From UHGV virus genome UHGV-0109738: a stretch of DNA of 64,000 nt; one strand, 5' to 3'. This stretch comes from a virus. The notes beneath the pieces were generated by a model. That model was not told the origin of the DNA and ran no database searches. It saw nothing but the letters and a program-made list of their open reading frames with translations. Of this stretch, positions 36,265-46,561 are shown piece after piece; within the stretch, counting starts at the first letter, position 1, and each line of letters begins with the position of its first letter. Made by a program: the position numbers and the translations under genes.

Positions 36265-36849
36265 TCACCCCCGTTTAAAGCTCATTACACGCGGTACAAG
36301 CGCTTCTTTTGCTTTAGGCTTACGTTTGCCTTTCTTCGCTGGTTTTTTCTCTTCTTTCGGCTCCTCTGCCTGTTCAACTGCCTGTTCTGCTGCATCAGTC
36401 GCCTTTTCCGCCTGGTCTAATGCCTGCTCTACGACTTCAGCCGCCTGCATTGCTGCAACCTGTGCTTCGTTTGATTCTGCCAGGATTGGGAAGAATGCGT
36501 CAAAGATGCGGCCTACCATGTAAGCATATGTCTCGTTTGCTGGGTGAGTTGGATCAGTGGTCGCCACGACGCCTACATCACTTAAAACGTGGAATGTAGT
36601 GTGTGCGCATTCATGTACCAGCGTTCCTAACTCATTATCGAATACTGCGATCACGTAGAAGTTACCGCCTTTCTCACCCGTGCAGGTTAATGTCAGGCCG
36701 CCTGCCAGTTCGAAATCAGGTTCGATCGGAATCCCTGCCTTCTCGCAAAATTCATAAAACATGTCGCGGGTCGGGCAGAAGAAAACAGTTGTATGCTCAA
36801 AGAGCGGAACTTTGAATTGAGGCAACTTGATGCCTTTAGCCTTAGCCAT
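36265..36849 (-). CDS. putative zinc metallopeptidase-like protein (HExxH motif) with lysine-rich C-terminal tail
   Basis: 194 aa; motif LVHECAHTTFH; C-terminus EEKKPAKKGKRKPKAK. Confidence 0.5.
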   Translation of the reverse strand: MAKAKGIKLPQFKVPLFEHTTVFFCPTRDMFYEFCEKAGIPIEPDFELAGGLTLTCTGEKGGNFYVIAVFDNELGTLVHECAHTTFHVLSDVGVVATTDPTHPANETYAYMVGRIFDAFFPILAESNEAQVAAMQAAEVVEQALDQAEKATDAAEQAVEQAEEPKEEKKPAKKGKRKPKAKEALVPRVMSFKRG

Positions 36850-37128: not shown

Positions 37129-37599
37129 TTATTCTTTGCGTAAGCACTGCGTTTTGATGTAGTCCTGTAACCCAGTGATCTGAGCGTCTTTCGTTTTTAG
37201 TTGTTCTCTGAGGGATAGATAAGCTGATTCAGCGTCGGGAGTGAGTCTACAGGTGGCTCCATCAATGGCGCTGGCGGATCCGGTGGGGTCAGACACTCGC
37301 ACGGGCGTTGCGTTGACGCGCAGCCGGATAGTGCCGTTATCAATACCAGTGCGCAGATCGGCAATGTCAGATCTGATAGCTTTAATTTCATCGTGATACC
37401 TCTTATCAAGTTTTGACAGTTCGGCGTTTCGCTCCTTCATCTGCTGAATAGTATTACTTGCTGTTTTTAGTGCGCCCTGCGTAGTAGTTAGCTCGCTTTG
37501 CATTGTGTTTATCACTGACTGGCAATGACTGAGCGCGGCAACAAGGCCAACAACAATACAAACAACAACGGCGATGATTAACGTCTTCACCTTGTCCAT
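37129..37599 (-). CDS. Rz i-spanin
   Basis: 156 aa; N-terminal TM then coiled-coil; follows endolysin; contains embedded Rz1 frame. Confidence 0.8.
37197..37391 (-). CDS. Rz1 o-spanin lipoprotein (embedded in Rz)
   Basis: [24 protein letters not shown] lipobox; proline-rich; alternative frame within Rz. Confidence 0.75.
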   Translation of the reverse strand: MKLKLSDLTLPICALVLITALSGCASTQRPCECLTPPDPPAPLMEPPVDSLPTLNQLIYPSENN

Positions 37600-38078
37600 G
37601 TTTCACCCCATTCGCAAACGGCATATTCAACCTCGCGGCGGTTAACCAGGCCTTGCCACTTCTTACCGCCAGCGTATACCCAGCGTTTAAGCTGTGCGCA
37701 CGCTTCTGATTTCTTGCCGTCATTGAGTAGCTTCAATAAGGTTGATGTTTTGAAATTGGTAGCGCCTACGTTATAGGCGAATGAATAAAGTGCTGCGCGG
37801 GTAAAATCTGATATTTCGACTTTAATATAGGGATCGATCGCTTTTGCGGTCTTGTGTAGATCTTTATTTAACAAAGCATCGCATTCTGATTGCGTGTAAG
37901 TCTTGCCAAGCATGATGTCTTTTCCCGTATGACCGTGGCAAACAGTCCATACACCAACAACATCACGATAAGGATTGTAATCAACTCCCTCTAATGGCTT
38001 AATCATCACCGCCGCAATAGCGATCGCCCCACCAGCCGCCGCCGCAACAATCTTGTTTTTCAGCGATTGGCTAATCAT
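37587..38078 (-). CDS. SAR endolysin (phage lysozyme)
   Basis: N-terminal signal-anchor [26 protein letters not shown] followed by lysozyme-like domain; start immediately after holin stop. Confidence 0.8.
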
Positions 38079-38079
38079 G

Positions 38080-38280
38080 TTACTTATTCCCCATTCGCGC
38101 GTCGTGTTCCTCTTGCGCTCGCTTGTTCTCCTGTGATTTGAAGTAATAGTTAACGGCAAATGTGCCTACGGTTGATAAGATACCCACAAAGACGGCAATA
38201 TCATTGATGGTTATCGCGCCGAAAAAAGCAGTTACGGCCCCAGTCACATACGCGCACGCCTCCCGTATTCTGTCGAACAT
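38080..38280 (-). CDS. holin (phage 21 S-type pinholin-like)
   Basis: 66 aa, two TM segments, charged C-terminus [26 protein letters not shown]. Confidence 0.75.
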
Positions 38281-38300
38281 AGATTTTCCTCCAACAAAGC

Positions 38301-38322
38301 AAAAACCCGGCGCGGGGCCGGG
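38301..38322 (-). terminator. rho-independent terminator immediately upstream of holin (tR'-like position)
   Basis: Minus-strand cccggc-cccgc-gccggg followed by TTTTT. Confidence 0.6.
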
Positions 38323-38387
38323 TAGTTATAGTTTCGCATTGTTAGAGAATATTTTAATCTGTTTGTTTACGACCTACAAATACGGCG

Positions 38388-38564
38388 TTACGGCTTTCTA
38401 TATATCAGGCCATTATCAAGCAATGTTTGCATATGCCACCGATCCATGTCGCTTAATTCCCAATAAGGAACATCATCAGGTCTTATCATCACCGATTCAC
38501 CTCTAACCAAATAGGCGATGTTAAATACCTTATGTAAATAGATGCCATCTTCGATCTCGTTCAT
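38388..38564 (-). CDS. small hypothetical protein (58 aa), paralog of 38561-38740
   Basis: Manual translation; N-terminus MNEIEDGIY; start overlaps upstream stop (ATGA). Confidence 0.4.
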   Translation of the reverse strand: MNEIEDGIYLHKVFNIAYLVRGESVMIRPDDVPYWELSDMDRWHMQTLLDNGLIYRKP

Positions 38565-38740
38565 AGGTCGCTAACCTTAAACAGTATGCCTTTATCAACG
38601 CCACGCTTAATGTCTTCCCTTGTTGTTTTGAAGAACGGCTCATATTCCCCACCATCGAAGCTGATTGTTACAGTATCGCCGCCCACTATGTAAAAAACGT
38701 TCTCCATCAGGTTTACACCATAGATACCGTCTTCAATCAT
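38561..38740 (-). CDS. small hypothetical protein (59 aa), paralog of 38388-38564
   Basis: Manual translation; N-terminus MIEDGIYGV; ATGA overlaps at both ends. Confidence 0.4.
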   Translation of the reverse strand: MIEDGIYGVNLMENVFYIVGGDTVTISFDGGEYEPFFKTTREDIKRGVDKGILFKVSDL

Positions 38741-38931
38741 TTCTTGCGCTCCTTAATAGCTCGCTTGATCTGCACTACCGTAGCATCGAAGAAAGCGAGA
38801 AACATCACTACAGGCCATAAAGGAATCTCAAGGCCACCACGATCGAGATCGTTATATTTGATGAAACAAGACATCAGGATAGCGCCAGCGATATAAAGGA
38901 GAAATACAGCAAAGATAAGACATTCAATCAT
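38737..38931 (-). CDS. small membrane protein (64 aa)
   Basis: ORF track; hydrophobic N-terminal half. Confidence 0.45.
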   Translation of the reverse strand: MIECLIFAVFLLYIAGAILMSCFIKYNDLDRGGLEIPLWPVVMFLAFFDATVVQIKRAIKERKK

Positions 38932-39064
38932 CCTCTTTCTCCCCGCCTAAATGTTGATATATTTTTTCAGCATTTTCCCCGCGCTCAAAACAATAATGCT
39001 CAAACATGCGCCAGTGTTCACTAAGAAACATAACAATAAACTTGTTTACGTATTCGTCATCCAT
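38924..39064 (-). CDS. small hypothetical protein (46 aa)
   Basis: Manual translation; start 3 nt after upstream stop. Confidence 0.35.
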   Translation of the reverse strand: MDDEYVNKFIVMFLSEHWRMFEHYCFERGENAEKIYQHLGGEKEDD

Positions 39065-39066
39065 CG

Positions 39067-39378
39067 TTAATCATCCTCTTCATCGTCTTCTTGTTCAGCT
39101 AGGAAATCATCGACAGAACAGTAAGTAACTGGCGGGATATATTCGAAGTCATCCGTATCAAGATCGAGCGTCCTGCTGTCGCCGTCGTCGTCAATCGTAT
39201 TCATTCCTAACTCACCGAAAGGGCCGTACCCAATGTGGCCCAGGTATTCGCAACCAATCGCAAACCCAGGGTATTCGCCTTTACACCGGATTTTGTAAAG
39301 TTTATTTGATGCGCTCAATTTCCGACCCTCCACTTTCTGCTTCAGTGATTTTGTATTCTGCCGCCAGTTCAGCGCCAA
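39067..39378 (-). CDS. hypothetical acidic protein (start uncertain)
   Basis: ORF track; acidic C-terminal tail EQEDDEEDD; N-terminal region ambiguous between frames. Confidence 0.3.
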   Translation of the reverse strand: MALNWRQNTKSLKQKVEGRKLSASNKLYKIRCKGEYPGFAIGCEYLGHIGYGPFGELGMNTIDDDGDSRTLDLDTDDFEYIPPVTYCSVDDFLAEQEDDEEDD

Positions 39379-39628
39379 GCAATTCCACTTCCATATTAGC
39401 GATACCCTGGAACATCAGATAGGCAAAAACTAGGCTTTTAATTCTATCCGGGTCTTCAAGATGGTCTGCATTAAAAGGCGGTTCCGATACGTGGAAGCAT
39501 TTAACATGCGCATCGTCTTCAGTGGCTACACGGAAACATGCGCCAGGTTACCCGGCGAATTCCCCCAATCTTTCTTCGTTCGGTAAAGTACCACGGAAAA
39601 CTTTAACGCTGATAAATTTAGTCATTGT

Positions 39629-39910
39629 TTATTCTCCTTCGTAAAGAGTTGCCACCAGTTCGGCATCTGTTAGCGTGTTATAATCTGTATAAAACCCGCA
39701 ACGCATAAGTGAAGAAAGGCCAGCCACTTTGCACCACATAGGGGTCGATTCGCTCAAATATTCATTCTCCCTTTTTTCGCTGTATTCCAGTTCATAAAAC
39801 CGACTATTGTTAACACCCTCAATTACACGGCTGTATGTGCCATCAAGCCTACTAACTCCGCGCCATAGTCTGATCACAACCATAATTTCTACTCCGTTTG
39901 ATGGGGCCAT
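39629..39910 (-). CDS. hypothetical protein (93 aa)
   Basis: ORF track; start lies within a GGGGCC/GGCCCC hairpin. Confidence 0.4.
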   Translation of the reverse strand: MAPSNGVEIMVVIRLWRGVSRLDGTYSRVIEGVNNSRFYELEYSEKRENEYLSESTPMWCKVAGLSSLMRCGFYTDYNTLTDAELVATLYEGE

Positions 39911-39922
39911 TCGGCCCCGTGT

Positions 39923-40063
39923 TTATTCTTCTTCTCCTCCTCTAAATCCTAAGCACTCCGCGTATTCGTCAATGCTTAATGCTTCTTCACCTGGTGCCAA
40001 TACTTCAAAGTAGCGGGCGTATAGTTCGAAAACCCAGGCCGGATATTTAGCGTTAGCGTTCAT
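39923..40063 (-). CDS. small hypothetical protein (46 aa)
   Basis: Manual translation; AAGGGG SD. Confidence 0.35.
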   Translation of the reverse strand: MNANAKYPAWVFELYARYFEVLAPGEEALSIDEYAECLGFRGGEEE

Positions 40064-40072
40064 GGTTCCCCC

Positions 40073-40351
40073 TTATGCCATGCGTGCAAATTCAAGTGAT
40101 TTGCATTCGTAGTCTTCCTCTGCCTGTTCGATGACTGCCATCATCATTTCGTTTGCGTTGTTGAATGCGTTGCTTTGTGCGAACTTGTCGGCTCCACCTT
40201 CTTCTTCGAACTCCGCGTTGTTTGCTGCAATGTAGTGATATTCGATGTTGTTCAGGTAAGGGCTTGCAGCGTGTGCTGGGTCTTCTTTCTCCACCATCTC
40301 CCAAAATGCGTTTAAGCGAGATTCGACTTCTTTGTTAATCCAGCGTTTCAT
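40073..40351 (-). CDS. hypothetical acidic protein (92 aa)
   Basis: ORF track. Confidence 0.45.
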   Translation of the reverse strand: MKRWINKEVESRLNAFWEMVEKEDPAHAASPYLNNIEYHYIAANNAEFEEEGGADKFAQSNAFNNANEMMMAVIEQAEEDYECKSLEFARMA

Positions 40352-40429
40352 TTTTCTACCCTCCGCATCGTTCTCTCTTCAGCTTCTTTATAACAAAATG
40401 GCACTGCCGAAACAATGCCATTTCGTAAA

Positions 40430-40451
40430 CCTTGTGATACAGATCACATTT
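40430..40451. promoter_or_regulatory. perfect CRP-consensus site TGTGA-N6-TCACA
   Basis: ccttgTGTGAtacagaTCACAttt in the only sizeable intergenic gap (40352-40449) of the late small-gene block; adjacent 8-bp inverted repeat aaatggca/tgccattt. Confidence 0.45.
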
Positions 40452-40674
40452 ACGTTTCTTCCGTAAAAGTAACCTTCATCGCCCCATCCGAACTACGGAC
40501 AACATAACGACCAATACCGCCTAGCGGCCCTGCATACCATAAGTGACCGTAAGTGTCAGTTACGACGATAAACGGAAATTTAGGAGACAATCCCATCGGT
40601 TTTTCAGCCGTATACTGTGCGCCTTCTTCAAAACAGCCTAATTTCGATTCGTTACACGTTAAAATCATTTTCAT
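40450..40674 (-). CDS. small protein, paralog family A member 1 (74 aa)
   Basis: Shares F-x-x-G-x-x-Y ... TD-x-x-G-x-LW pattern with three adjacent genes. Confidence 0.5.
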   Translation of the reverse strand: MKMILTCNESKLGCFEEGAQYTAEKPMGLSPKFPFIVVTDTYGHLWYAGPLGGIGRYVVRSSDGAMKVTFTEET

Positions 40675-40910
40675 ACCCCTACATACGAAAACGCAGCAAA
40701 AGCACCACCACCAGCACGCGCATAAACAAGTGCCGTGCCATACCCCATCTTATAAAATCGCCATAACTGACCCTGGTCGTCAGTAATGGCATGAATATAT
40801 TCCTGATCCTTTGCGTCAACCAATGCCGCGTCAACCTCGTAGATCTTGCCATTCTTAAAAAACGCGCTGCATCGTGAGTATGTGCACTGGTATCTATGTT
40901 TCCGATTCAT
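40671..40910 (-). CDS. small protein, paralog family A member 2 (79 aa)
   Basis: FFKNGKIYEV..ITDDQGQLWRFY; ATGA overlap with member 1. Confidence 0.5.
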   Translation of the reverse strand: MNRKHRYQCTYSRCSAFFKNGKIYEVDAALVDAKDQEYIHAITDDQGQLWRFYKMGYGTALVYARAGGGAFAAFSYVGV

Positions 40911-40920
40911 AGCACCTCAC

Positions 40921-41178
40921 TTATTCCGGTTTACTGCCTTCGCGGGCGCAAAACTCCGCGATCTCACGGAAATCATGCACTATGCGATAAATATACAAAC
41001 CAGCGGCGTTATTGATATGGCTAACATAAGCGAAATAAACTTTATCATCATCGCCAGTTATCGCCATTGCACCATCACCGCCCGGTGCGCCGTGGAGTTG
41101 AACGCCGCAATAGATCTTCCCTTCTTCAAAAATATTGCGGTCGCGCGTCTGCAATACCTCAAAATATAAATGTTTCAT
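40921..41178 (-). CDS. small protein, paralog family A member 3 (85 aa)
   Basis: FEEGKIYCGV..ITGDDDKVYFAY; AAGGGG SD. Confidence 0.5.
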   Translation of the reverse strand: MKHLYFEVLQTRDRNIFEEGKIYCGVQLHGAPGGDGAMAITGDDDKVYFAYVSHINNAAGLYIYRIVHDFREIAEFCAREGSKPE

Positions 41179-41188
41179 TGTTGCCCCT

Positions 41189-41401
41189 TTAATAACGTTC
41201 AAAGCTGGCAGCAAAACCTACACCGGATATTTCACCGCCTTCATAGCTCGGCCTGAATACCCATATTTCGTCATGATTATCAATCAAGGCAAGGCAATTA
41301 CTCATTGTGTGTGCTTCATTGCCATAAACGATGTGAACGTCATAAATACTCCCAATCGTGAAAACACTGTCATTGCTTGAGTATGAGCATTTAACTTGCA
41401 T
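41189..41401 (-). CDS. small protein, paralog family A member 4 (70 aa)
   Basis: FTIGSIYDVH..LIDNHDEIWVF. Confidence 0.5.
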   Translation of the reverse strand: MQVKCSYSSNDSVFTIGSIYDVHIVYGNEAHTMSNCLALIDNHDEIWVFRPSYEGGEISGVGFAASFERY

Positions 41402-41646
41402 CAGAAAACCCCTTTATAATCGACCGTGTATTTTGCTATCAGATTCCAGTCGCAGTAATTAAGCATGTTGCGAGGCTGCCAGCCTTTCATCCCGACCGCC
41501 CGCCGCGCAGCGTGACGGCGATAATCATCGTTATAGTCAGCTATGCACCACGGCTGGAGAACAAACATATAATTTGCTTCATTAACCAGGATAGCCACCA
41601 GCTTTCCTGTTGCCTTGTCTTTTGCCCTGAAATAATTCACTTTCAT
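41401..41646 (-). CDS. small hypothetical protein (81 aa)
   Basis: ORF track; tightly packed co-directional. Confidence 0.45.
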   Translation of the reverse strand: MKVNYFRAKDKATGKLVAILVNEANYMFVLQPWCIADYNDDYRRHAARRAVGMKGWQPRNMLNYCDWNLIAKYTVDYKGVF

Positions 41647-41858
41647 TTTAACACCTCGTCGATCAACATTTCTTCTTCCAGGTTAGCCGGACGTTTACGA
41701 AATATCCCGGCAAAAACCAGATCTTCGAGTAGGTCTTTACGCTTAAATAACCACTCTTTCATTATCACCCCGTCGTTGCTGCGATATACGACGCCGCTTT
41801 TCAGAAAATAAAAAGTGCGGCTATTGGTCTGTAGGTAGAGATCTTCGTAAACGTCCAT
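41643..41858 (-). CDS. small hypothetical protein (71 aa)
   Basis: ORF track; 4-nt overlap. Confidence 0.45.
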   Translation of the reverse strand: MDVYEDLYLQTNSRTFYFLKSGVVYRSNDGVIMKEWLFKRKDLLEDLVFAGIFRKRPANLEEEMLIDEVLK

Positions 41859-41862
41859 ACCG

Positions 41863-42090
41863 TTAATCCTCTACAATCTCAAGCCCGCGCCCCTTGTCCC
41901 CGACGAAATCGCCCAAGCTGAACGTATACGACCACGCCGGATTGATGTAATGGTCATCAGCACCAGCGGCAATGAGATCAGCACCATTAATCATGCAAGT
42001 AATATCATCGCTATGAACGACATTAACGACCTTACCAACAACCTGTTTCAATGACTGGTATCCGTGATCGTGCAAGAATTTAACTTTCAT
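41863..42090 (-). CDS. small hypothetical protein (75 aa)
   Basis: ORF track. Confidence 0.45.
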   Translation of the reverse strand: MKVKFLHDHGYQSLKQVVGKVVNVVHSDDITCMINGADLIAAGADDHYINPAWSYTFSLGDFVGDKGRGLEIVED

Positions 42091-42320
42091 TCGTCTGCCT
42101 CCCAGTGGTCTATGCTGATTAAAAAGTCCCGGATAGCGTGTCGTTCGTCGCGCGTTGGCTTGCGCTTACGGTAAATCTTAAAGTCAAACCATTCTTTTTC
42201 TTGTTCGAAATCCAGGTTGTAAGCAAGCACCTCAATATATCCACATTCGTGATACTGGTACGCCACGCCAGCACGAACAAAAAAGCGGGTTTTATCCCGC
42301 TTGTGTTCATAGATACGCAT
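42087..42320 (-). CDS. small hypothetical protein (77 aa)
   Basis: ORF track; 4-nt overlap. Confidence 0.45.
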   Translation of the reverse strand: MRIYEHKRDKTRFFVRAGVAYQYHECGYIEVLAYNLDFEQEKEWFDFKIYRKRKPTRDERHAIRDFLISIDHWEADE

Positions 42321-42330
42321 ATTTGCCCCA

Positions 42331-42561
42331 CTATGCAGTCGTGTAACTATCTACCAGCTTTTCATCCTTCATTCTGGCAAGCTGGGAGATATTCATCGTG
42401 TAGCCTTCATCAGAGAAAAGCCACTCCGCAGCCTTGCGACGAAAAGCTATATCATCATGGTTGCGCGTCCATGTAGCGATCACCACGCGCTTTCCATCAG
42501 TGGCAAACATGGTTAATTCGTTATCAACAACGTCGATAGCCTGCCAGATTTTTAGTTCCAT
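42331..42561 (-). CDS. small hypothetical protein (76 aa)
   Basis: ORF track. Confidence 0.45.
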   Translation of the reverse strand: MELKIWQAIDVVDNELTMFATDGKRVVIATWTRNHDDIAFRRKAAEWLFSDEGYTMNISQLARMKDEKLVDSYTTA

Positions 42562-42917
42562 GATTTATCACCGTAGATCTTGAATAGTTCACACGCTTTC
42601 TGATCTTCAAATATATTCATATGCAGGTCACGCAGACGGCGCATTGTTCGGAATCGCGGTCTAAACTCCTGGCTCCGTTTAATGTATTTGCCGCCAATTG
42701 AATAAATATGCCCGTATGAATACCATCTATTCCCTACCCATATTTCATATTCTTTGCCTTCGTAATTGAATTTTATCGTTAGCTCGTCCACTTCAACTAT
42801 TGACCATTTATCAATGATGTCATTAAGCATTTCGTCCCATTCTTTCAGGAATGGATGCTGATAAAAACCGAAAAGCGTATTTGCAGCGTGGCAAAGGTAA
42901 TCAATGATTATTTGCAT
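42552..42917 (-). CDS. hypothetical protein (121 aa)
   Basis: ORF track. Confidence 0.45.
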   Translation of the reverse strand: MQIIIDYLCHAANTLFGFYQHPFLKEWDEMLNDIIDKWSIVEVDELTIKFNYEGKEYEIWVGNRWYSYGHIYSIGGKYIKRSQEFRPRFRTMRRLRDLHMNIFEDQKACELFKIYGDKSWN

Positions 42918-43137
42918 ATTTCCACCTTCTCAATATGTAGTAAATGTTATCGTAAGCTATATTATCCGCATCTTCCTGTGTTATATGTCTGGCATCAAAA
43001 AAGAAATCAGCGTCGTGCCATACATGAAAAAGAAGTCGCGCGAATTGTCTGCGGCGGCGCTTACTGCGTGATAGTTCGTTAAATTCTATTAACGCTTTAT
43101 CATATGCTCTTATCATGCGCTTACGGTTACTTTTCAT
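42901..43137 (-). CDS. small basic protein, paralog family B member 1 (78 aa)
   Basis: MKSNRKRMIRAYDKALIEF..; tandem paralog of 43142-43342. Confidence 0.5.
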   Translation of the reverse strand: MKSNRKRMIRAYDKALIEFNELSRSKRRRRQFARLLFHVWHDADFFFDARHITQEDADNIAYDNIYYILRRWKYANNH

Positions 43138-43141
43138 ATTG

Positions 43142-43342
43142 TCACCACATCATATAGTAAACGTTATCATCTGCTAATTCGTCTGCGTCTCTTTGGCAGT
43201 CGATTGTCGCATCATCTTCGTGCCATTCTTTAGCAAATAAACGCGCCCATTTACGACGCTCACGTTTATTGTGCCGCAGGTCACTAAAAACCATTAAAGC
43301 CTTGTCGTAAGCTCTTACCAGGCGTTTCATTCTACTTTTCAT
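43142..43342 (-). CDS. small basic protein, paralog family B member 2 (66 aa)
   Basis: MKSRMKRLVRAYDKALMVF.. Confidence 0.5.
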   Translation of the reverse strand: MKSRMKRLVRAYDKALMVFSDLRHNKRERRKWARLFAKEWHEDDATIDCQRDADELADDNVYYMMW

Positions 43343-43548
43343 TTTTCACCCTTCCTTAATTCCTTAATTTCAATATTGCGTAACCGGACGTCGCACGGCG
43401 TTTCAGATTTACCAGTAAGCGCCAGCGTCAGGTTTTCAGGTGTCGTGTAAAGAATTATCTCTTTACCAGTGCTAAATTTAATTTCTATGCGGATCTCGTT
43501 TTCATCACCGCACAATACGCGGCTAATTGACAGGCCAGCTTTTTTCAT
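43339..43548 (-). CDS. small hypothetical protein (69 aa)
   Basis: ORF track. Confidence 0.4.
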   Translation of the reverse strand: MKKAGLSISRVLCGDENEIRIEIKFSTGKEIILYTTPENLTLALTGKSETPCDVRLRNIEIKELRKGEK

Positions 43549-43561
43549 TGCTCAACAAACC

Positions 43562-43873
43562 TTAAAATCTGTATTGCCAGTAAATATCACACTTTATTGC
43601 GAATACCTTCACCGGATCAGGGCCGAATAGTGGATGTTGAATCAACTTGATTTCGTACCCCATGTAAGGCAATACGATAATCCGGTCTTTCTCATCATCC
43701 GATGGATAACCCCATTTAATGATTAATCTTGTGTACTCCCGCCCCTCCAGGCGTTTACGCCAGTATTCATTGTAAAGCCGGTATTCTTCCACCTTCTTTC
43801 CCGCCCGGATGGCGTGGAAGTATTCACCTTTTAAATTCAAATGTAAGTGTTTATTTGCCATCGCTATGATCAT
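43562..43873 (-). CDS. hypothetical protein (103 aa)
   Basis: ORF track. Confidence 0.45.
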   Translation of the reverse strand: MIIAMANKHLHLNLKGEYFHAIRAGKKVEEYRLYNEYWRKRLEGREYTRLIIKWGYPSDDEKDRIIVLPYMGYEIKLIQHPLFGPDPVKVFAIKCDIYWQYRF

Positions 43874-44120
43874 GTAAACAGTCGTTATAGCCTTCGATGT
43901 ATCCGGTTAATCCTGTGTTACTTACTGACCAATCAGCCGAACGGCGCTTGATGGCCTTGTCCATAGTCATCTCGTCACCTGGCCCGCCTGGCTCGATGTA
44001 TTTTCTTAAATCCCTTACTATCCACGCCCTTAATTGTTGCGTATCACTGCACACACGCGCCGTTAATGTCAGATTATTAACCAGCTTTGCGAATAGATGT
44101 TCTTTTAATTTAGGCTTCAT
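43851..44120 (-). CDS. hypothetical protein (89 aa)
   Basis: ORF track. Confidence 0.4.
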   Translation of the reverse strand: MKPKLKEHLFAKLVNNLTLTARVCSDTQQLRAWIVRDLRKYIEPGGPGDEMTMDKAIKRRSADWSVSNTGLTGYIEGYNDCLHDHSDGK

Positions 44121-44310
44121 CCTTCACCTCGCGACGATAGATTTCTACTGGCTTAACCGGAATAGCGTTAAAATCACCTTCATCCAGTGCGGCAATAAAC
44201 GTTAGCGCCAACCGTGCTTCAACACCGCTTAAATACTTGCACCATGCCTCACCGTTATAATCTTTAAAAAGAATAATCACTTTTTTCATGTTTATCTCTT
44301 GTTGTTTCAT
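44110..44310 (-). CDS. hypothetical protein (66 aa)
   Basis: ORF track; begins right at Q stop, leaving no room for a lambda-like pR' gap. Confidence 0.4.
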   Translation of the reverse strand: MKQQEINMKKVIILFKDYNGEAWCKYLSGVEARLALTFIAALDEGDFNAIPVKPVEIYRREVKDEA

Positions 44311-45032
44311 TATTCACCCCGTGTCACTCGTTTAATTTCGTTATCAGCCCGCGCCTCTTCTTTGAACAATTCAGTAATGGCGTCTTCATAGAAAGCACGG
44401 TATTTCTTCCACCACGTTGATCGGCTTACCGGAAATACAAGCTGATTAACCGCACGCCGGACAAGATCTACAGGGAAACGCGAGTACCCGCGCCCGCCGC
44501 AATGCTGGCACGTTTTGAACGCTGGCATTTCCGCTGCTTCACTGGCTGCTTTATCCGGTATCTCGCCGCGCCCTTTGCATCGTTTACAATGATTGCGAAC
44601 TTTTCCATGCCCCTTGCATTTTTTGCAAAGGTGTTTTTCTCCGTAGTCGTCAAACGTAAATTTATATCCGCCGCAATCCATACAAGTTTTTTCTGTCGCG
44701 GCACTCTGGCAGTAATCCCGAAACGCGAAAACGGCAACAAGAATAATAAGATCATTGCGTTTGTCCTCGTCCAACTCCATGACGTATTCGTAATCTTTTG
44801 CCATAGCTCTTAAACGCTCTGTAAGCAAAACTACGGCCCTGTGTTTTTCGGCTTGCGATAATTCCATCTTCCCTAAAAAAGCGCTATAACCAAGCTCTAC
44901 GCGCGATTGCGCCATACCTGCTGCGGTTAGTGCATCAGTAGTATTAAGCGAGTCTGGGGACGTGCCCCGGCTTTCATCTGACAAACGCGGTGATTTTGGG
45001 AGGTGGAATTTAAGAATAGATTCCAAATTCAT
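44310..45032 (-). CDS. Q: late antitermination protein Q (lambda type)
   Basis: N-terminus MNLESILKFHLPKSPRLSDESRGTSPDSL..AAGMAQS aligns with lambda Q; Cys-rich zinc-binding region. Confidence 0.85.
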   Translation of the reverse strand: MNLESILKFHLPKSPRLSDESRGTSPDSLNTTDALTAAGMAQSRVELGYSAFLGKMELSQAEKHRAVVLLTERLRAMAKDYEYVMELDEDKRNDLIILVAVFAFRDYCQSAATEKTCMDCGGYKFTFDDYGEKHLCKKCKGHGKVRNHCKRCKGRGEIPDKAASEAAEMPAFKTCQHCGGRGYSRFPVDLVRRAVNQLVFPVSRSTWWKKYRAFYEDAITELFKEEARADNEIKRVTRGE

Positions 45033-45214
45033 TATTTACCCCCGTAACGTGCAACCAGTCTTTTGCGATCAGATATTGATTGCACTAGCTTTCTTTCAAA
45101 CTCTTTCAATGCAAGCAATTCGCGCATATGAAAAGCCTGGATTTGTCGGACTGTAGCTAAATCATGCTCATCGCGCTGAATATCTATTTGCAGATCTTTA
45201 ACTTCGTTTTTCAT
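45032..45214 (-). CDS. hypothetical protein (60 aa)
   Basis: ORF track. Confidence 0.4.
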   Translation of the reverse strand: MKNEVKDLQIDIQRDEHDLATVRQIQAFHMRELLALKEFERKLVQSISDRKRLVARYGGK

Positions 45215-45618
45215 TGCTCACCCCACATATTAGTCGCGTATTCGTCAATATCCGGTAGTAGGTCGCCGCGTTCGCGGATCTTAATAAACAAGCGTCCGCC
45301 TTTTACCTTCCGGCAGCGGACAATTTTTATTGAGTCAATTTGTCCATCATCTTTCCAAAATCCGGCATAAGTAAGGCTGTCAAATAGGCATTTAGGGATA
45401 TTATCAAGATCCCTGGTCCGGTTATCAGGCGGCGCGGCATAAATGGCGATTGCCAGTCGGCAAGACAGGTTAATGTCTAGATTTAATAATTCGATGATGT
45501 CTTTTACTTGTTCCCGGTATTCCTTCCCCACTTCGCTGATATAGTGAAAACCCCGTGAATGTCGGTAATAGCGGTTATTCGATGGCGGGTAAGGCAGGCT
45601 AAAAGTATATTCATTCAT
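45211..45618 (-). CDS. rusA: crossover junction endodeoxyribonuclease RusA
   Basis: LPYPPSNNRYYRHSRG and RDLDNIPKCLFDSLTYAGFWKDDGQ match RusA. Confidence 0.9.
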   Translation of the reverse strand: MNEYTFSLPYPPSNNRYYRHSRGFHYISEVGKEYREQVKDIIELLNLDINLSCRLAIAIYAAPPDNRTRDLDNIPKCLFDSLTYAGFWKDDGQIDSIKIVRCRKVKGGRLFIKIRERGDLLPDIDEYATNMWGEQ

Positions 45619-46220
45619 GCTGCCTTTCTCCTTAAGGCGTCCAATTTAGCCTGATAGACTTTTATGATCTCCTTGCATTCTTCGATCGCCCATTTATGAG
45701 TTTCGTTGTTGTTCTCCAGCGCTTCCACCCTGGCAAGGCCAATTTTCCTAATCAGCGCTGGGCGATATGCTTCTATGTTGCCATCTAATGTCTGGTTGCA
45801 GTGCCTGCATTGTTTGTGGCAATTATCCTCGTTAAAACGAAGGTGCCCGGCGGCGGCAACCGTTCTATAGTGTCCGGCATCTGCTCCGCATTGTTCGTAA
45901 TAGTAAGTCCCGCATGATATGCACGGCTGACCCGCGTCACGTTCGCGGATATAGGCATTAAATACCGCTTGTGCCTGCTTCAACCAATAACTACGCGGAT
46001 TTAACTGCTTCCGCTTCCGGTTGCGTTCTTCCCGCTGGCTATCACGGCGTTTCTTCCGTTCCATAGCCTTCATAGCCTTCTCACGGTCGCGGCATAGCTG
46101 ATCAAACTTCAGCTCTTCCAGACACTCATCACTGCACCACGTTTGATTGTGATATTTAGGCTCAAAAAAAACGCCGCAGCACTTGCAACGGCGTCTTATT
46201 GGTTTTTTAGGGTTCTGCAT
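45615..46220 (-). CDS. ninG: NinG/Rap recombination protein
   Basis: Aligns with lambda NinG (RRRCKCC..; PRSYWLKQAQ; CISCGT..DAGHYRT; LRFNE.N.HKQC). Confidence 0.85.
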   Translation of the reverse strand: MQNPKKPIRRRCKCCGVFFEPKYHNQTWCSDECLEELKFDQLCRDREKAMKAMERKKRRDSQREERNRKRKQLNPRSYWLKQAQAVFNAYIRERDAGQPCISCGTYYYEQCGADAGHYRTVAAAGHLRFNEDNCHKQCRHCNQTLDGNIEAYRPALIRKIGLARVEALENNNETHKWAIEECKEIIKVYQAKLDALRRKAA

Positions 46221-46234
46221 AAAAACCACCCCTA

Positions 46235-46411
46235 TTATTTTTGATTCTCTGTTTCGTTCAGCCTTTCGGCGTGTCCGGCCCTTAGCCAATGATCTAAGCA
46301 TTCGTTGCACTCGTTACAGCCTCCTTTCTTTGTGCTGCATACATTGCACATTGCACGCATGACGCTTTCTCGTTCATAGTCGTCATGCCATTGGTAATTA
46401 TCAAAAGACAT
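46235..46411 (-). CDS. NinF-like small zinc-finger protein
   Basis: MSFDNYQWHDDYERESVMRA..C-rich; AGGGAGG SD. Confidence 0.55.
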   Translation of the reverse strand: MSFDNYQWHDDYERESVMRAMCNVCSTKKGGCNECNECLDHWLRAGHAERLNETENQK

Positions 46412-46519: not shown

Positions 46520-46561
46520 AATGGCGCCATTATGTGATCCACATCACGCAATGGCGCCATT
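46520..46561. promoter_or_regulatory. twin 12-bp perfect palindromes AATGGCGCCATT flanking a CRP-like TGTGA-N6-TCACG
   Basis: aatggcgccatt at 46520 and 46550, 30 bp apart; centre atgTGTGAtccacaTCACGc. Confidence 0.45.

Follow-up and report, generated by a model that had tools for sequence, protein, structure and literature searches.

An array of small accessory genes between the Q antiterminator gene and the probable late promoter of an mEp021-type E. coli prophage

Lambda's nin region is made up of small ORFs in the pR operon that are delayed-early and dispensable, whereas in Stx phages the Q-dependent stx genes and their tRNA genes come after pR'-tR'. As published, the Q-dependent late cassette comprises the Q gene, pR', a pause element, a terminator and the late genes, the Q transcription unit being defined in the literature as adjacent to Q. 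In lambda pR' has the form TAAATT-6 nt-AACGAT, and in SEN22 it is TAATAT-7 nt-AACAGT, followed by a terminator. The mEpimmI (mEp021-like) group of coliphages has also been described (PMC11893012; GenBank MH706966, PP180001-5 and PP925836), including N-like antitermination by Gp17 in mEp021, which is placed, with nutR2, upstream of NinG and Q. That study mentions just 'variable regions' and contains no analysis of the block between Q and the lysis genes.

The sequence studied here (the window, 64,000 nt of the virus genome UHGV-0109738) is a prophage of this group. Seven mEp phages, and 35 of the 5,426 complete E. coli genomes, share 84-96% DNA identity with the region; none of the public records is identical to it, the best match having 95.6% identity over 93%. 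Between Q and the holin gene, the minus strand carries 24 intact small ORFs of 45-121 aa, running co-directionally from 44310 down to 38388, and one nonsense-disrupted ORF (Table 1). Overlaps occur at 14 of the 23 junctions, six being of the 4-nt ATGA type, much as an earlier note on this DNA had described in reporting about 25 tightly packed, co-directional small genes. An apparent gap of 250 nt (39379-39628) results from the disruption of the 25th gene, of family 16, by a CAA to TAA nonsense codon; this gene is intact in 12 relatives, and the disrupted copy is 99.5% identical by blastn to the intact gene of strain M1/5.

Alternatively, the ORFs could be remnants without function, or could have arisen by chance in spacer DNA, as might be suggested by this nonsense mutation and by several frameshifted or chimeric database homologues. 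However, dN/dS lies between 0.05 and 0.53 in all 31 families, which effectively refutes such a reading, and PHROG families are matched by 21 of the 24 ORFs, with E-values down to 1e-60; hence these are real genes, small, conserved and under purifying selection. Coding density (0.81-0.97 across loci), Shine-Dalgarno sequences and coupled starts likewise make the remnant explanation extremely improbable.

Table 1. Coordinates of features in the Q-to-lysis region of the window; fractions give the loci in which a family is found
Feature	Coordinates	Strand	Evidence
Q antiterminator, lambda Q family	44310..45032	-	PF03589 7.7e-30; phrog_127 3.6e-78
g01, 66 aa, family 17 (11/16 loci)	44110..44310	-	phrog_35000 2.3e-42; dN/dS 0.10
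g02, 89 aa, family 6 (15/16 loci)	43851..44120	-	phrog_29262 6.3e-59; dN/dS 0.24
g03, 103 aa, probable ASCH/PUA-like domain protein (12/16 loci)	43562..43873	-	phrog_625 2.7e-37
g04, 69 aa, family 22 (5/16 loci)	43339..43548	-	phrog_1222 1.7e-29
g05, 66 aa, basic, family 2, paralogue of g06	43142..43342	-	phrog_8758 2.3e-24
g06, 78 aa, basic (pI 10.1), family 2, paralogue of g05	42901..43137	-	phrog_8758
g07, 121 aa, family 7 (15/16 loci)	42552..42917	-	phrog_16975 4.8e-60
g08, 76 aa, family 3 (16/16 loci)	42331..42561	-	phrog_38280 6.6e-56
g09, 77 aa, family 8 (14/16 loci)	42087..42320	-	phrog_30442 8e-52; dN/dS 0.05
g10, 75 aa, family 10 (13/16 loci)	41863..42090	-	phrog_5009 4.8e-30
g11, 71 aa, family 4 (16/16 loci)	41643..41858	-	
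g12, 81 aa, basic, family 5 (16/16 loci)	41401..41646	-	phrog_38609 2.5e-52
g13, 70 aa, family II subfamily D (8/16 loci)	41189..41401	-	phrog_31142 8e-5; hhalign
g14, 85 aa from ATG, probable family II subfamily G (6/16 loci)	40921..41178	-	hhalign
g15, 79 aa, family II subfamily A2 (7/16 loci + one chimera)	40671..40910	-	
g16, 74 aa, family II subfamily C (11/16 loci)	40450..40674	-	C-E P=2.3e-5
Mid-block intrinsic terminator, AAAUGGCAUUG-loop-CAGUGCCAUUUUGUU	40392..40423	-	sequence, alignment, RNA fold
Candidate extended -10 promoter TGtTATAAA, directly after mid-block terminator	40387..40395	-	alignment of 11 loci
g17, 92 aa, acidic, family 19 (6/16 loci)	40073..40351	-	phrog_7287 9.9e-38
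g18, 46 aa, acidic, family 13 (12/16 loci)	39923..40063	-	phrog_22232 2.9e-34
g19, 93 aa (84 aa from internal ATG), family 9 (12/16 loci; duplicated in 2)	39629..39910	-	phrog_32200 1.2e-55
Family 16 gene, TAA at 39548-39550 where relatives have CAA	39302..39625	-	translation; blastn against loci
g20, 45 aa, 42% Asp+Glu, family 14 (12/16 loci)	39067..39204	-	
g21, 46 aa, acidic, family 20 (6/16 loci)	38924..39064	-	phrog_15754 2.3e-25
g22, 64 aa, family 11 (13/16 loci)	38737..38931	-	phrog_10061 2.9e-24
g23, 59 aa, family I subfamily A1 (10/16 loci)	38561..38740	-	phrog_15318 3.4e-17
g24, 58 aa, family I subfamily B (12/16 loci)	38388..38564	-	phrog_15318
Candidate late promoter pR', non-coding element	38281..38372	-	alignment of 16 loci
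Intrinsic terminator, tR' equivalent	38305..38323	-	ACCCGGC-CCCGC-GCCGGGT then TTTTT
Class II (HP1-family) holin, first late gene	38080..38280	-	PF16080 1.6e-14; phrog_20
Lysozyme-type endolysin ORF	37587..38159	-	PF00959 3.8e-44
Rz i-spanin	37129..37599	-	ORF listing; homologue annotation
Embedded Rz1-like ORF within Rz	37197-37409		

The window was compared with 15 relatives, giving 16 loci in which the slot between Q and the holin gene ranges from 2,006 to 7,142 nt and from 8 to 29 genes. Gene order is fixed, and the relatives differ only by the loss, gain or duplication of whole genes, which are present or absent one by one; the last gene belongs to family I in every locus, except for two that have a family 25 gene. 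About four families are common to all 16 loci, namely those of g08, g11 and g12 together with at least one family I gene. The block is thus the accessory, presence/absence-polymorphic region proposed beforehand, and a fairly ordinary one for an mEp021-type E. coli prophage; the description of it as fast-evolving is true of its gene content, but not of its sequences, given the purifying selection and conserved order. Resizing of the array is best explained by short-homology deletions, through which neighbouring genes often become fused in frame, together with ancient tandem duplications. One such fusion is mEp013_60, where a g15-like gene is joined in frame to a g23-like gene and the crossover falls within a shared patch of about 14 nt; P0013, P0050 and P0051 are chimeras as well.

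The universal families, and the depositors' annotation of the g11 homologue in mEp021 (gp41) as a 'virion structural protein', might indicate that the block encodes unrecognised core functions, such as accessories to replication, morphogenesis or lysis. This seems highly doubtful, as most families are missing from several viable phages and mEp021 plates normally with only eight block genes. Furthermore, no block protein matched a functional Pfam, NCBIfam or annotated PHROG family, so that homology searching assigned no known housekeeping phage function and the accessory interpretation is retained.

Three sets of paralogues had been proposed within the block. The two basic proteins g05 and g06 are clearly related (blastp 5.9e-15, 49% identity, a common PHROG); their family is found in 15 of the 16 loci, three of which have two copies, and homologues of g06 occur in only 11 phage records. 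The pair starting M(N)EIEDGIY, g23 and g24, is similarly upheld (blastp 7e-6, a common PHROG), with profile-profile comparison by hhalign relating subfamily A1 to B (P=5.5e-10) and to F (P=2e-9). Of the supposed four-member family at 40450-41401, g13, g15 and g16 are joined through a bridging subfamily from the relatives (hhalign profile-profile P=2.3e-10, 4e-8 and 2.3e-5, the first being D-E and the last C-E; A2-D gives P=3.2e-5). The fourth, g14, is a weaker but probable member: its match to the merged family II profile, spanning 52 columns, has P=3.9e-4, whereas the 15 control families all score worse (0.0015-0.76), and it carries the F..G..Y and ITxDD motifs common to the family. If started at an upstream TTG (41214), g14 would be 97 aa long. 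A Chi site lies inside g15 at 40708-40715.

The earlier statement that no protein has a recognisable domain stands for all but g03, in nine of nine members of which a sub-threshold Pfam ASCH signature (E=0.011) is detected. In tblastn searches g03 matched 332 phage records at 55-60% identity, several annotated as ASCH, and PGAP names its homologues 'ASCH domain-containing' or 'RNA-binding protein'; hence it is probably an ASCH/PUA-like domain protein. Homologues of g04 are present in 228 phage records, including HK620 (hkaF), Stx phages and Dhillonviruses. No PHROG match was found for g11 and no PDB sequence match for g07. The g20 ORF is extendable to a TTG at 39378, and phrog_25234 matches this longer form; in the relatives PGAP calls the 44-45 aa form. 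With two hydrophobic segments (Kyte-Doolittle 19-residue maximum 2.59), g22 is probably a small membrane protein.

Searches of the block proteins against known defence and anti-defence proteins found no homology. The sole lead to an anti-defence role is a fold match between the family II model (pLDDT 77) and Bas11 Gp54 (PDB 9axb), at 10% identity. The products may be small single-domain proteins. Besides the ASCH-like protein, the two basic paralogues and the membrane protein candidate, they would comprise several highly acidic proteins of 45-46 aa, four beta-barrels resembling Gp54 and another small fold in two copies. Such proteins might be dispensable and serve, early in infection, to modulate proteins or defences of the host.

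The likely timing of expression depends on the boundaries of the block. Q is 35% identical to lambda Q (E=2e-48), with a 31-aa insertion bearing extra CxxC motifs. Its stop codon shares one base with the ATG of the first block ORF (TAATG) in the window and all 15 relatives, whichever gene comes first, confirming that the block follows Q without a gap; consequently there is no promoter gap after Q. At the other boundary, the 90 nt preceding the holin gene are near-invariant in the 16 loci, whereas adjacent coding DNA varies. Here a -10 sequence, TAAAAT (38351-38356), is followed by a 7-nt spacer, a pause-element-like AACAAT (38338-38343), a terminator and the holin RBS, and TAAAAT-N7-AACAAT has its sole exact match within the window at this site. 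By analogy with the pR' sequences of lambda and SEN22, and from its conservation, this cassette is probably the Q-dependent late promoter pR'. It has a poor -35 (3/6), which exists in two different haplotypes, and for this reason a generic promoter scan did not detect it. The terminator, 25 nt before the holin ATG, corresponds to TERM_5 (score 100) in the mEp021 annotation, and the predicted succession of terminator and holin after the block is confirmed, along with lysozyme and Rz; in the relatives the endolysin is annotated as a 492-nt form starting right after the holin.

Since the pR'-like cassette sits after the block and before the holin gene, the block lies upstream of the probable Q-dependent promoter, and this, with the lack of a gap after Q, makes Q-dependent read-through of the block unlikely. 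Were the block instead late cargo, pR' would be at the end of or inside Q, and Q-modified RNA polymerase would transcribe these genes before the lysis genes, as with stx. The physical position between Q and the holin gene would accord with this, as would the virion annotation of gp41, which would fit late rather than early expression. However, we consider it improbable: intergenic space after Q is absent in 16 of 16 loci, the Q junction is identical in mEp021 and mEp044 despite their different first block genes, and a motif search of the window found no second -10/AACAAT copy near Q. With the sole lambda-type cassette of -10, pause element and terminator conserved downstream of the block, the earlier analogy to the toxin position of Stx phages is not supported.

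We therefore favour, with moderate confidence, the reading of the block as a flexible accessory-gene array of an mEp021-type temperate coliphage, nin-like and delayed-early, between the Q gene and the promoter that Q targets. The array would be co-transcribed with Q at the distal end of the delayed-early rightward operon, independently of Q activity, with N-like Gp17 antitermination carrying transcription through its internal terminator; it would represent a nin-like region placed after Q, not an Stx-like late moron. An early context is also indicated by the homologues of g03 and g04, which sit in early accessory regions of lambdoid phages (adjoining EaA/Ea22 in Stx phages, and as hkaF, respectively).

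The internal terminator (RNA fold -25.4 kcal/mol) is kept in 14 of the 16 loci by pattern search, is annotated as T7/T8 by ARNold in mEp044 and mEp010, and divides the array into g01-g16 and g17-g24. In 11 aligned loci, the terminator and the candidate extended -10 that follows it are conserved regardless of the next gene, and the conserved TGnTATAAA could make the distal half an independent unit. The genes g17-g24 (40351-38388) would then form a separate moron-like unit with its own sigma70 promoter and terminators on both sides. The distal half does have the highest gene turnover and dN/dS (up to 0.53), and includes the membrane protein candidate. Nevertheless the candidate promoter is known from its sequence and has a weak -35, shuffled sequence contains promoter-like sites just as often as this region does, and mEp021 and mEp013 have distal genes but neither terminator nor promoter element; a separate unit is therefore unlikely, though not negligibly so. 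On that unlikely reading, the unit could be active in the prophage state and benefit the lysogen, for instance through exclusion or fitness functions.

Amongst known systems, the closest are the mEpimmI phages themselves, in which the slot is flanked, as in the window, by NinG, RusA, a 60-aa ORF and Q on one side and by holin, lysozyme and Rz on the other, with identical gene families in identical order; the window differs in its own combination of 24 genes, duplicated g05/g06, four family II genes and the family 16 nonsense mutation. Bas11 Gp54 is a small beta-barrel trigger of CapRelSJ46; no sequence-level link to it was detected for family II, which is multi-copy and, apart from a few sequences, confined to mEp-like prophages. 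The Stx-phage toxin locus is likewise an accessory segment with Q on one side and the lysis genes on the other, but stx follows pR'-tR' whereas here the pR'-like cassette follows the block, in which neither tRNAs nor toxin-like domains were found. The lambdoid late cassette is matched in its components: Q is of the lambda family, the -10 precedes a pause-like AAC(A/G)(A/G)T, and after an intrinsic terminator come the holin and lysis genes. However, the promoters of lambda and SEN22 begin no more than about 100 nt from the Q stop codon, whilst 2-7 kb of genes intervene here, and the terminator is within about 20 nt of the pause element rather than about 190 nt as in lambda. None of the 24 block proteins matched a nin family. 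Nonetheless the array resembles the lambda nin region: its small ORFs are co-directional and closely packed, stop codons overlap with starts, and an operon is probably shared with Q. Like nin, the array is mosaic and probably dispensable, and is interrupted by terminators for which N-type antitermination would be needed; whereas the lambda region lies between the replication genes and Q, the array here follows Q, and the recognisable nin homologues, NinG and RusA, are upstream of it.

The minus strand of UHGV-0109738 carries, between the Q gene and the holin, an array of tightly packed small genes, numbered here from g01 at the Q end to g24 (see the table of features). The estimate of about 25 genes in the earlier note was accurate, because the sole large 'gap' among the 24 intact ORFs (39379-39628) corresponds to a 25th gene, of family 16 (39302-39625, minus strand), which bears a single nonsense codon, CAA having become TAA at 39548-39550. 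This gene is intact in 12 relatives, and strain M1/5 has CAA at the codon in question; as the window's copy is otherwise 99.5% identical to the intact one there, its inactivation is recent. The suggestion that this 250 nt stretch might house a promoter was rejected in view of the nonsense-disrupted gene that fills it. Adjacent genes overlap at 14 of the 23 junctions, six of these overlaps being of the ATGA type. Fifteen related loci, of the mEpimmI (mEp021-like) group, were fetched for comparison, and 325 ORFs were clustered into around 31 families, in every one of which dN/dS lies between 0.05 and 0.53; the block ORFs are genes under purifying selection, rather than chance ORFs. PHROG families match 21 of the 24 ORFs, with E-values down to 1e-60, all of these families being of unknown function.

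Features of the Q-holin region and Chi sites of the window
Feature	Position	Strand	Remarks
NinG	45615-46310	minus	
RusA	45211-45618	minus	
60-aa ORF		minus	between RusA and Q
Q	44310-45032	minus	PF03589, 7.7e-30
24 intact small ORFs (g01-g24)	44310 down to 38388	minus	
Second intrinsic terminator	40423-40392	minus	3' of g16; kept in 14/16 loci
TGtTATAAA	40395-40387	minus	conserved; directly after the mid-block terminator
pR'-like element	TAAAAT 38356-38351; AACAAT 38343-38338	minus	hexamers 7 nt apart; 16 loci
Stretch after AACAAT		minus	about 14 nt, hairpin, T tract, RBS, holin ATG
GC-rich hairpin with T tract	38323-38305	minus	before holin
HP1-type holin	38080-38280	minus	followed by lysozyme and Rz/Rz1
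Chi sites	27107, 28076, 35306, 35787, 38029, 40708, 41595, 48903, 63602	minus	

The block region is 84-96% identical to those of the coliphages mEp021, mEp044, mEp010, mEp013, mEp515, mEp554 and MagusPhagus. Megablast comparisons with mEp044 and MagusPhagus gave 81-82% coverage at 86-88% identity, whilst E. coli prophages reach up to 93% coverage at 95.6% identity, with matches in 35 of 5,426 complete genomes. The gene order NinG-RusA-Q-small genes-holin-lysozyme-Rz is that of the mEpimmI group, with annotations in agreement, and every one of the window's 24 genes belongs to a family found, in collinear order, in the 15 loci. This group was described in 2025 as Nus-dependent, as non-lambdoid by recombination tests, and as having an N-like Gp17 together with a Q-like protein; the same paper names 'variable regions', without an analysis of the Q-holin block (PMC11893012). 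The window's block is a new allele of this known variable region, published but unanalysed.

Across the 16 loci, including the window, the Q stop codon and the holin start lie between 2,006 nt (mEp021, eight genes) and 7,142 nt (strain KKa019, 29 genes) apart, and 6,032 nt apart in the window. The loci differ by the presence, absence and duplication of whole genes, their order being collinear everywhere. What all 16 have in common is limited to the families of g08, g11 and g12, together with one or more genes of family I, the g23/g24 group; g02, g05/06 and g07 occur in 15. The comparison with related prophages thereby revealed the presence/absence polymorphism expected of the accessory region that the earlier note had envisaged: given this variation in size and gene presence between loci, the block is accessory, with its gene content in flux. 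The description 'fast-evolving' holds for that content, but not for the gene sequences, whose divergence does not exceed that of Q.

The layout of lambda-type systems has pR' directly after the Q gene, followed by a sigma-dependent pause element resembling a -10, a terminator and then the late genes. No non-coding DNA follows Q in any of the 16 loci: the Q stop codon ends on the base that begins the ATG of g01, and the Q stop overlaps the next ORF throughout, in keeping with the note's observation that the block starts without a gap. Around 90 nt upstream of the holin are instead almost invariant in all 16 loci, although the neighbouring coding DNA varies and three different genes can precede the element. 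This stretch includes an invariant AAACAAAYAGAT as well as the pR'-like motif, which is found exactly once in the window, 5.95 kb downstream of Q. The motif resembles both lambda pR' (TAAATT, 6 nt, AACGAT, as against TAAAAT, 7 nt, AACAAT) and that of the P22-like SEN22 (TTTACA-17-TAATAT, 7 nt (catttct), AACAGT, terminator); however, the SEN22 promoter begins about 40 nt past its own Q gene. Hence a Q of a recognised family, a -10, a pause-like element, a terminator and late genes are all present at the sequence level, whereas the candidate pR' does not adjoin the Q gene. The terminator noted ahead of the holin was confirmed as a hairpin with a T tract, and together these elements likely constitute a late promoter dependent on Q, along with its terminator; the least secure part of the promoter assignment is a poor -35, which exists as two haplotypes. 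No matches to the pR'-like element were found outside the mEp group, and a generic scan for promoters and terminators returned sites no more frequently than in shuffled sequence.

As the candidate pR' lies past the last block gene, the block would be upstream of it, and would be transcribed with Q, independently of Q protein, as the distal part of a delayed-early operon. The Q-dependent read-through of the block that the note had raised is accordingly not supported, given the position of the pR'-like cassette beyond it and the lack of a promoter gap after Q. Membership of the pR operon is suggested by the coupling of the block to Q and by published data on nutR2 and Gp17: in mEp021, Gp17 antitermination is documented, with nutR2 upstream of NinG. 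Given the second terminator within the block, g17-g24 would be reached from pR only with antitermination by Gp17. Alternatively, the conserved TGtTATAAA just behind this terminator could be an extended -10 promoter, making the distal half of the block semi-autonomous. Further upstream, a palindromic decamer, ATGGCGCCAT, occurs twice on the minus strand (46521-46530 and 46551-46560, the starts being 30 nt apart) in the spacer between a cytosine methyltransferase gene and a ninF-like ORF, near the position where the mEp021 paper puts terminator t4 and nutR2.

Over its full length, the Q protein itself shares 35% identity with lambda Q (E = 2e-48), and it is a genuine lambda-family antiterminator. 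The closest Q outside the mEp group is that of SEN22, at 36% identity, and no Q proteins of intermediate identity were found. Relative to lambda Q there is a 31-residue insertion at residues ~117-147, which adds CxxC...CxxC motifs and matches the DnaJ-type CXXCXGXG pattern at E = 2.5e-5, under the cut-off; this points to a possible second zinc ribbon within the 'arm' that binds DNA.

Several of the small genes are paralogues. The two-member basic family proposed earlier is clear, g05 and g06 matching by blastp at 5.9e-15 and having phrog_8758 in common. The pair at 38388-38740 is paralogous too: g23 and g24 (7e-6) both match phrog_15318 and have a profile-profile P of 5.5e-10, with a third subfamily (F) found in relatives and one to three copies of family I per phage. 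The proposed four-member family (family II, g13-g16) stands for three genes. Direct similarity between g13, g15 and g16 is weak, but subfamily E, from relatives, joins them firmly (P = 2.3e-10, 4e-8 and 2.3e-5, respectively). The fourth, g14, is a probable member: against the merged profile it reaches P = 3.9e-4, with 52 columns in register, which none of 15 control families equals (0.0015-0.76), and it shares the F..G..Y and ITxDD motifs. Families I and II show no relation to one another (profile comparison P = 0.57); their merger by single-linkage clustering was rejected, the link being one natural chimera in mEp013. When 5.8 billion proteins were searched, and 1.84 billion representatives exhaustively, both families proved almost limited to E. 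coli mEp-like contigs, with only a few outliers. Beyond the mEp group, family II has a rare relative in P0168, a 212 aa protein from the representative library, in which the domain occurs twice in tandem together with a C-terminal hydrophobic anchor. Since the paralogues share no DNA-level repeats within the block, the duplications are old.

The mEp013 chimera (mEp013_60, locus L007:6288-6584) joins residues 1-69 of a g15-like protein in frame to a g23-like C-terminus. The crossover patch is about 14 nt, CGTG(C/T)TGG(T/C)GGTGG, at which the g15-like parent has a Chi octamer, and this single event removed everything between the g15-like and the g23-like gene. The databases contain three further fusions, likewise in frame, that link the g15 family to other genes of the block (P0013, P0050 and P0051); across mEp013_60, P0005 and these three, g15-like N-termini are fused to C-termini of family I, 15 or 16. 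Such fusion genes mark deletions at short shared patches, and the block bears clear traces of in-frame short-homology recombination. Where deletions occur at the Q end, the TAATG junction is always kept, whichever gene comes first. The window has nine Chi octamers (GCTGGTGG), all on the minus strand, where 1.16 are expected and none of 100 shuffles reached nine; two lie within block genes, g15 and g12, and the Chi of the g15 family lies at the crossover of the mEp013 deletion chimera.

Searches for function gave no assignment, and the earlier statement that no domain is recognisable in the block is qualified only by g03. Amongst all 24 proteins, Pfam matches were limited to a sub-threshold PAP_RNA-bind in g17 and to ASCH (PF04266) in g03, at 16.9 bits against a gathering cut-off of 21.2 (E = 0.011, in nine of nine members). 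The top PDB match of g03 is PH0355 (2z0t, E = 0.28), and homologues 55-60% identical, several annotated as ASCH, occur in 332 phage records, adjoining EaA/Ea22 in Stx phages; g03 is probably an ASCH/PUA-like protein. Homologues of g04 are found in HK620 (hkaF), Stx phages and Dhillonviruses. Of the remainder, g05 and g06 are basic; g17, g18, g20 and g21 are acidic, g20 being 42% Asp+Glu; and g22 is a probable small membrane protein with two hydrophobic segments. Neither NCBIfam nor PADLOC matched any of the ten proteins submitted to each, sequence searches of the PDB, whether by individual protein or by profile, yielded only noise (including designed helical repeats for g17 and HIV gp41 constructs for g02), and nothing resembling a characterised inhibitor in sequence or fold emerged on comparison with anti-defence proteins already known (Acr, Ocr/Ard, Gam-like and others). 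The g11 homologue mEp021_41 (L002:4294-4542; window 41643-41858) is a 'virion structural protein' in GenBank, which if true would be a misfit with a purely early role; the mEp021 paper reports 16 virion proteins found by mass spectrometry, but no such entry behind the gp41 annotation was found in its text or supplements. Outside the block, between the lysis genes and the terminase region, a 194-aa ORF (36265-36849, minus strand; phrog_1365, unknown function, no Pfam match) contains LVHECAHTTFH, an HExxH motif, and a tail rich in Ala, Glu and Lys, and may encode an unrecognised metallopeptidase.

Structures were predicted for families I and II. Family I (pLDDT 92.5) has no convincing structural neighbour. 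The family II model is a six-strand beta-barrel superposable on Gp54 of Bas11 (9axb), the trigger of CapRelSJ46; folds similar to it are common in small uncharacterised proteins of enterobacterial siphophages, and CapRelSJ46 is not triggered even by close Gp54 homologues. Profile search of PDB sequences did not find 9axb, and an exhaustive HMM search returned only mEp-type small proteins and repeat-protein noise. An anti-defence or host-modulating role, suggested by context and one modelled fold match, is plausible. A wider reading, which we consider unlikely, is that the array is a diversifying nursery of small binders directed against host immunity, in which families I and II are decoys or inhibitors, maintained through selection by sensors (CapRel, for example) and shuffled anew through in-frame short-homology recombination, with dose and timing tied to Q synthesis by placement between Q and pR'. 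A single phage has as many as five Gp54-like barrels from family II, and as many as three copies of family I; were this reading true, such a layout for dose and timing would be one not described for lambda-family Q cassettes.

Small early phage gene arrays are the source of many anti-defence and host-takeover functions. The array described here is common in human-gut E. coli prophages and is a well-delimited candidate list for functional screens, for which the natural presence/absence series from mEp021 to KKa019 offers ready-made deletion mutants.

The stx genes are cargo downstream of pR'/tR', the opposite of the block's probable order, and a Stx-type moron has a late promoter and terminator upstream of the cargo, which the block lacks. 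The analogy drawn earlier with the toxin position of Stx phages is therefore not supported, since Q and g01 have neither a promoter gap nor a motif between them and the cassette lies downstream of g24. ARAGORN found no tRNA or tmRNA genes in the window, Rfam no families there, and no toxin domains are present in the block proteins. In SEN22, the ~400 nt from pR' to the holin could, by eye, hold a tRNA-like sequence (L017:900-1030), which if true would be a layout like that of Stx phages. The lambda nin region shares with the block its packing, overlaps and dispensability, but lies between the replication genes and Q, whereas the block is downstream of Q. Overall, the block is an array of a familiar type, made up of small early accessory genes, and is no new kind of system. 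What is noteworthy is the traces of short-homology recombination, the two lineage-restricted multi-copy families, one with the modelled fold of a known immune trigger, and the kilobases that apparently lie between a lambda-family Q and its promoter, an arrangement that corrects the Stx analogy and from which expression early and without Q is predicted.
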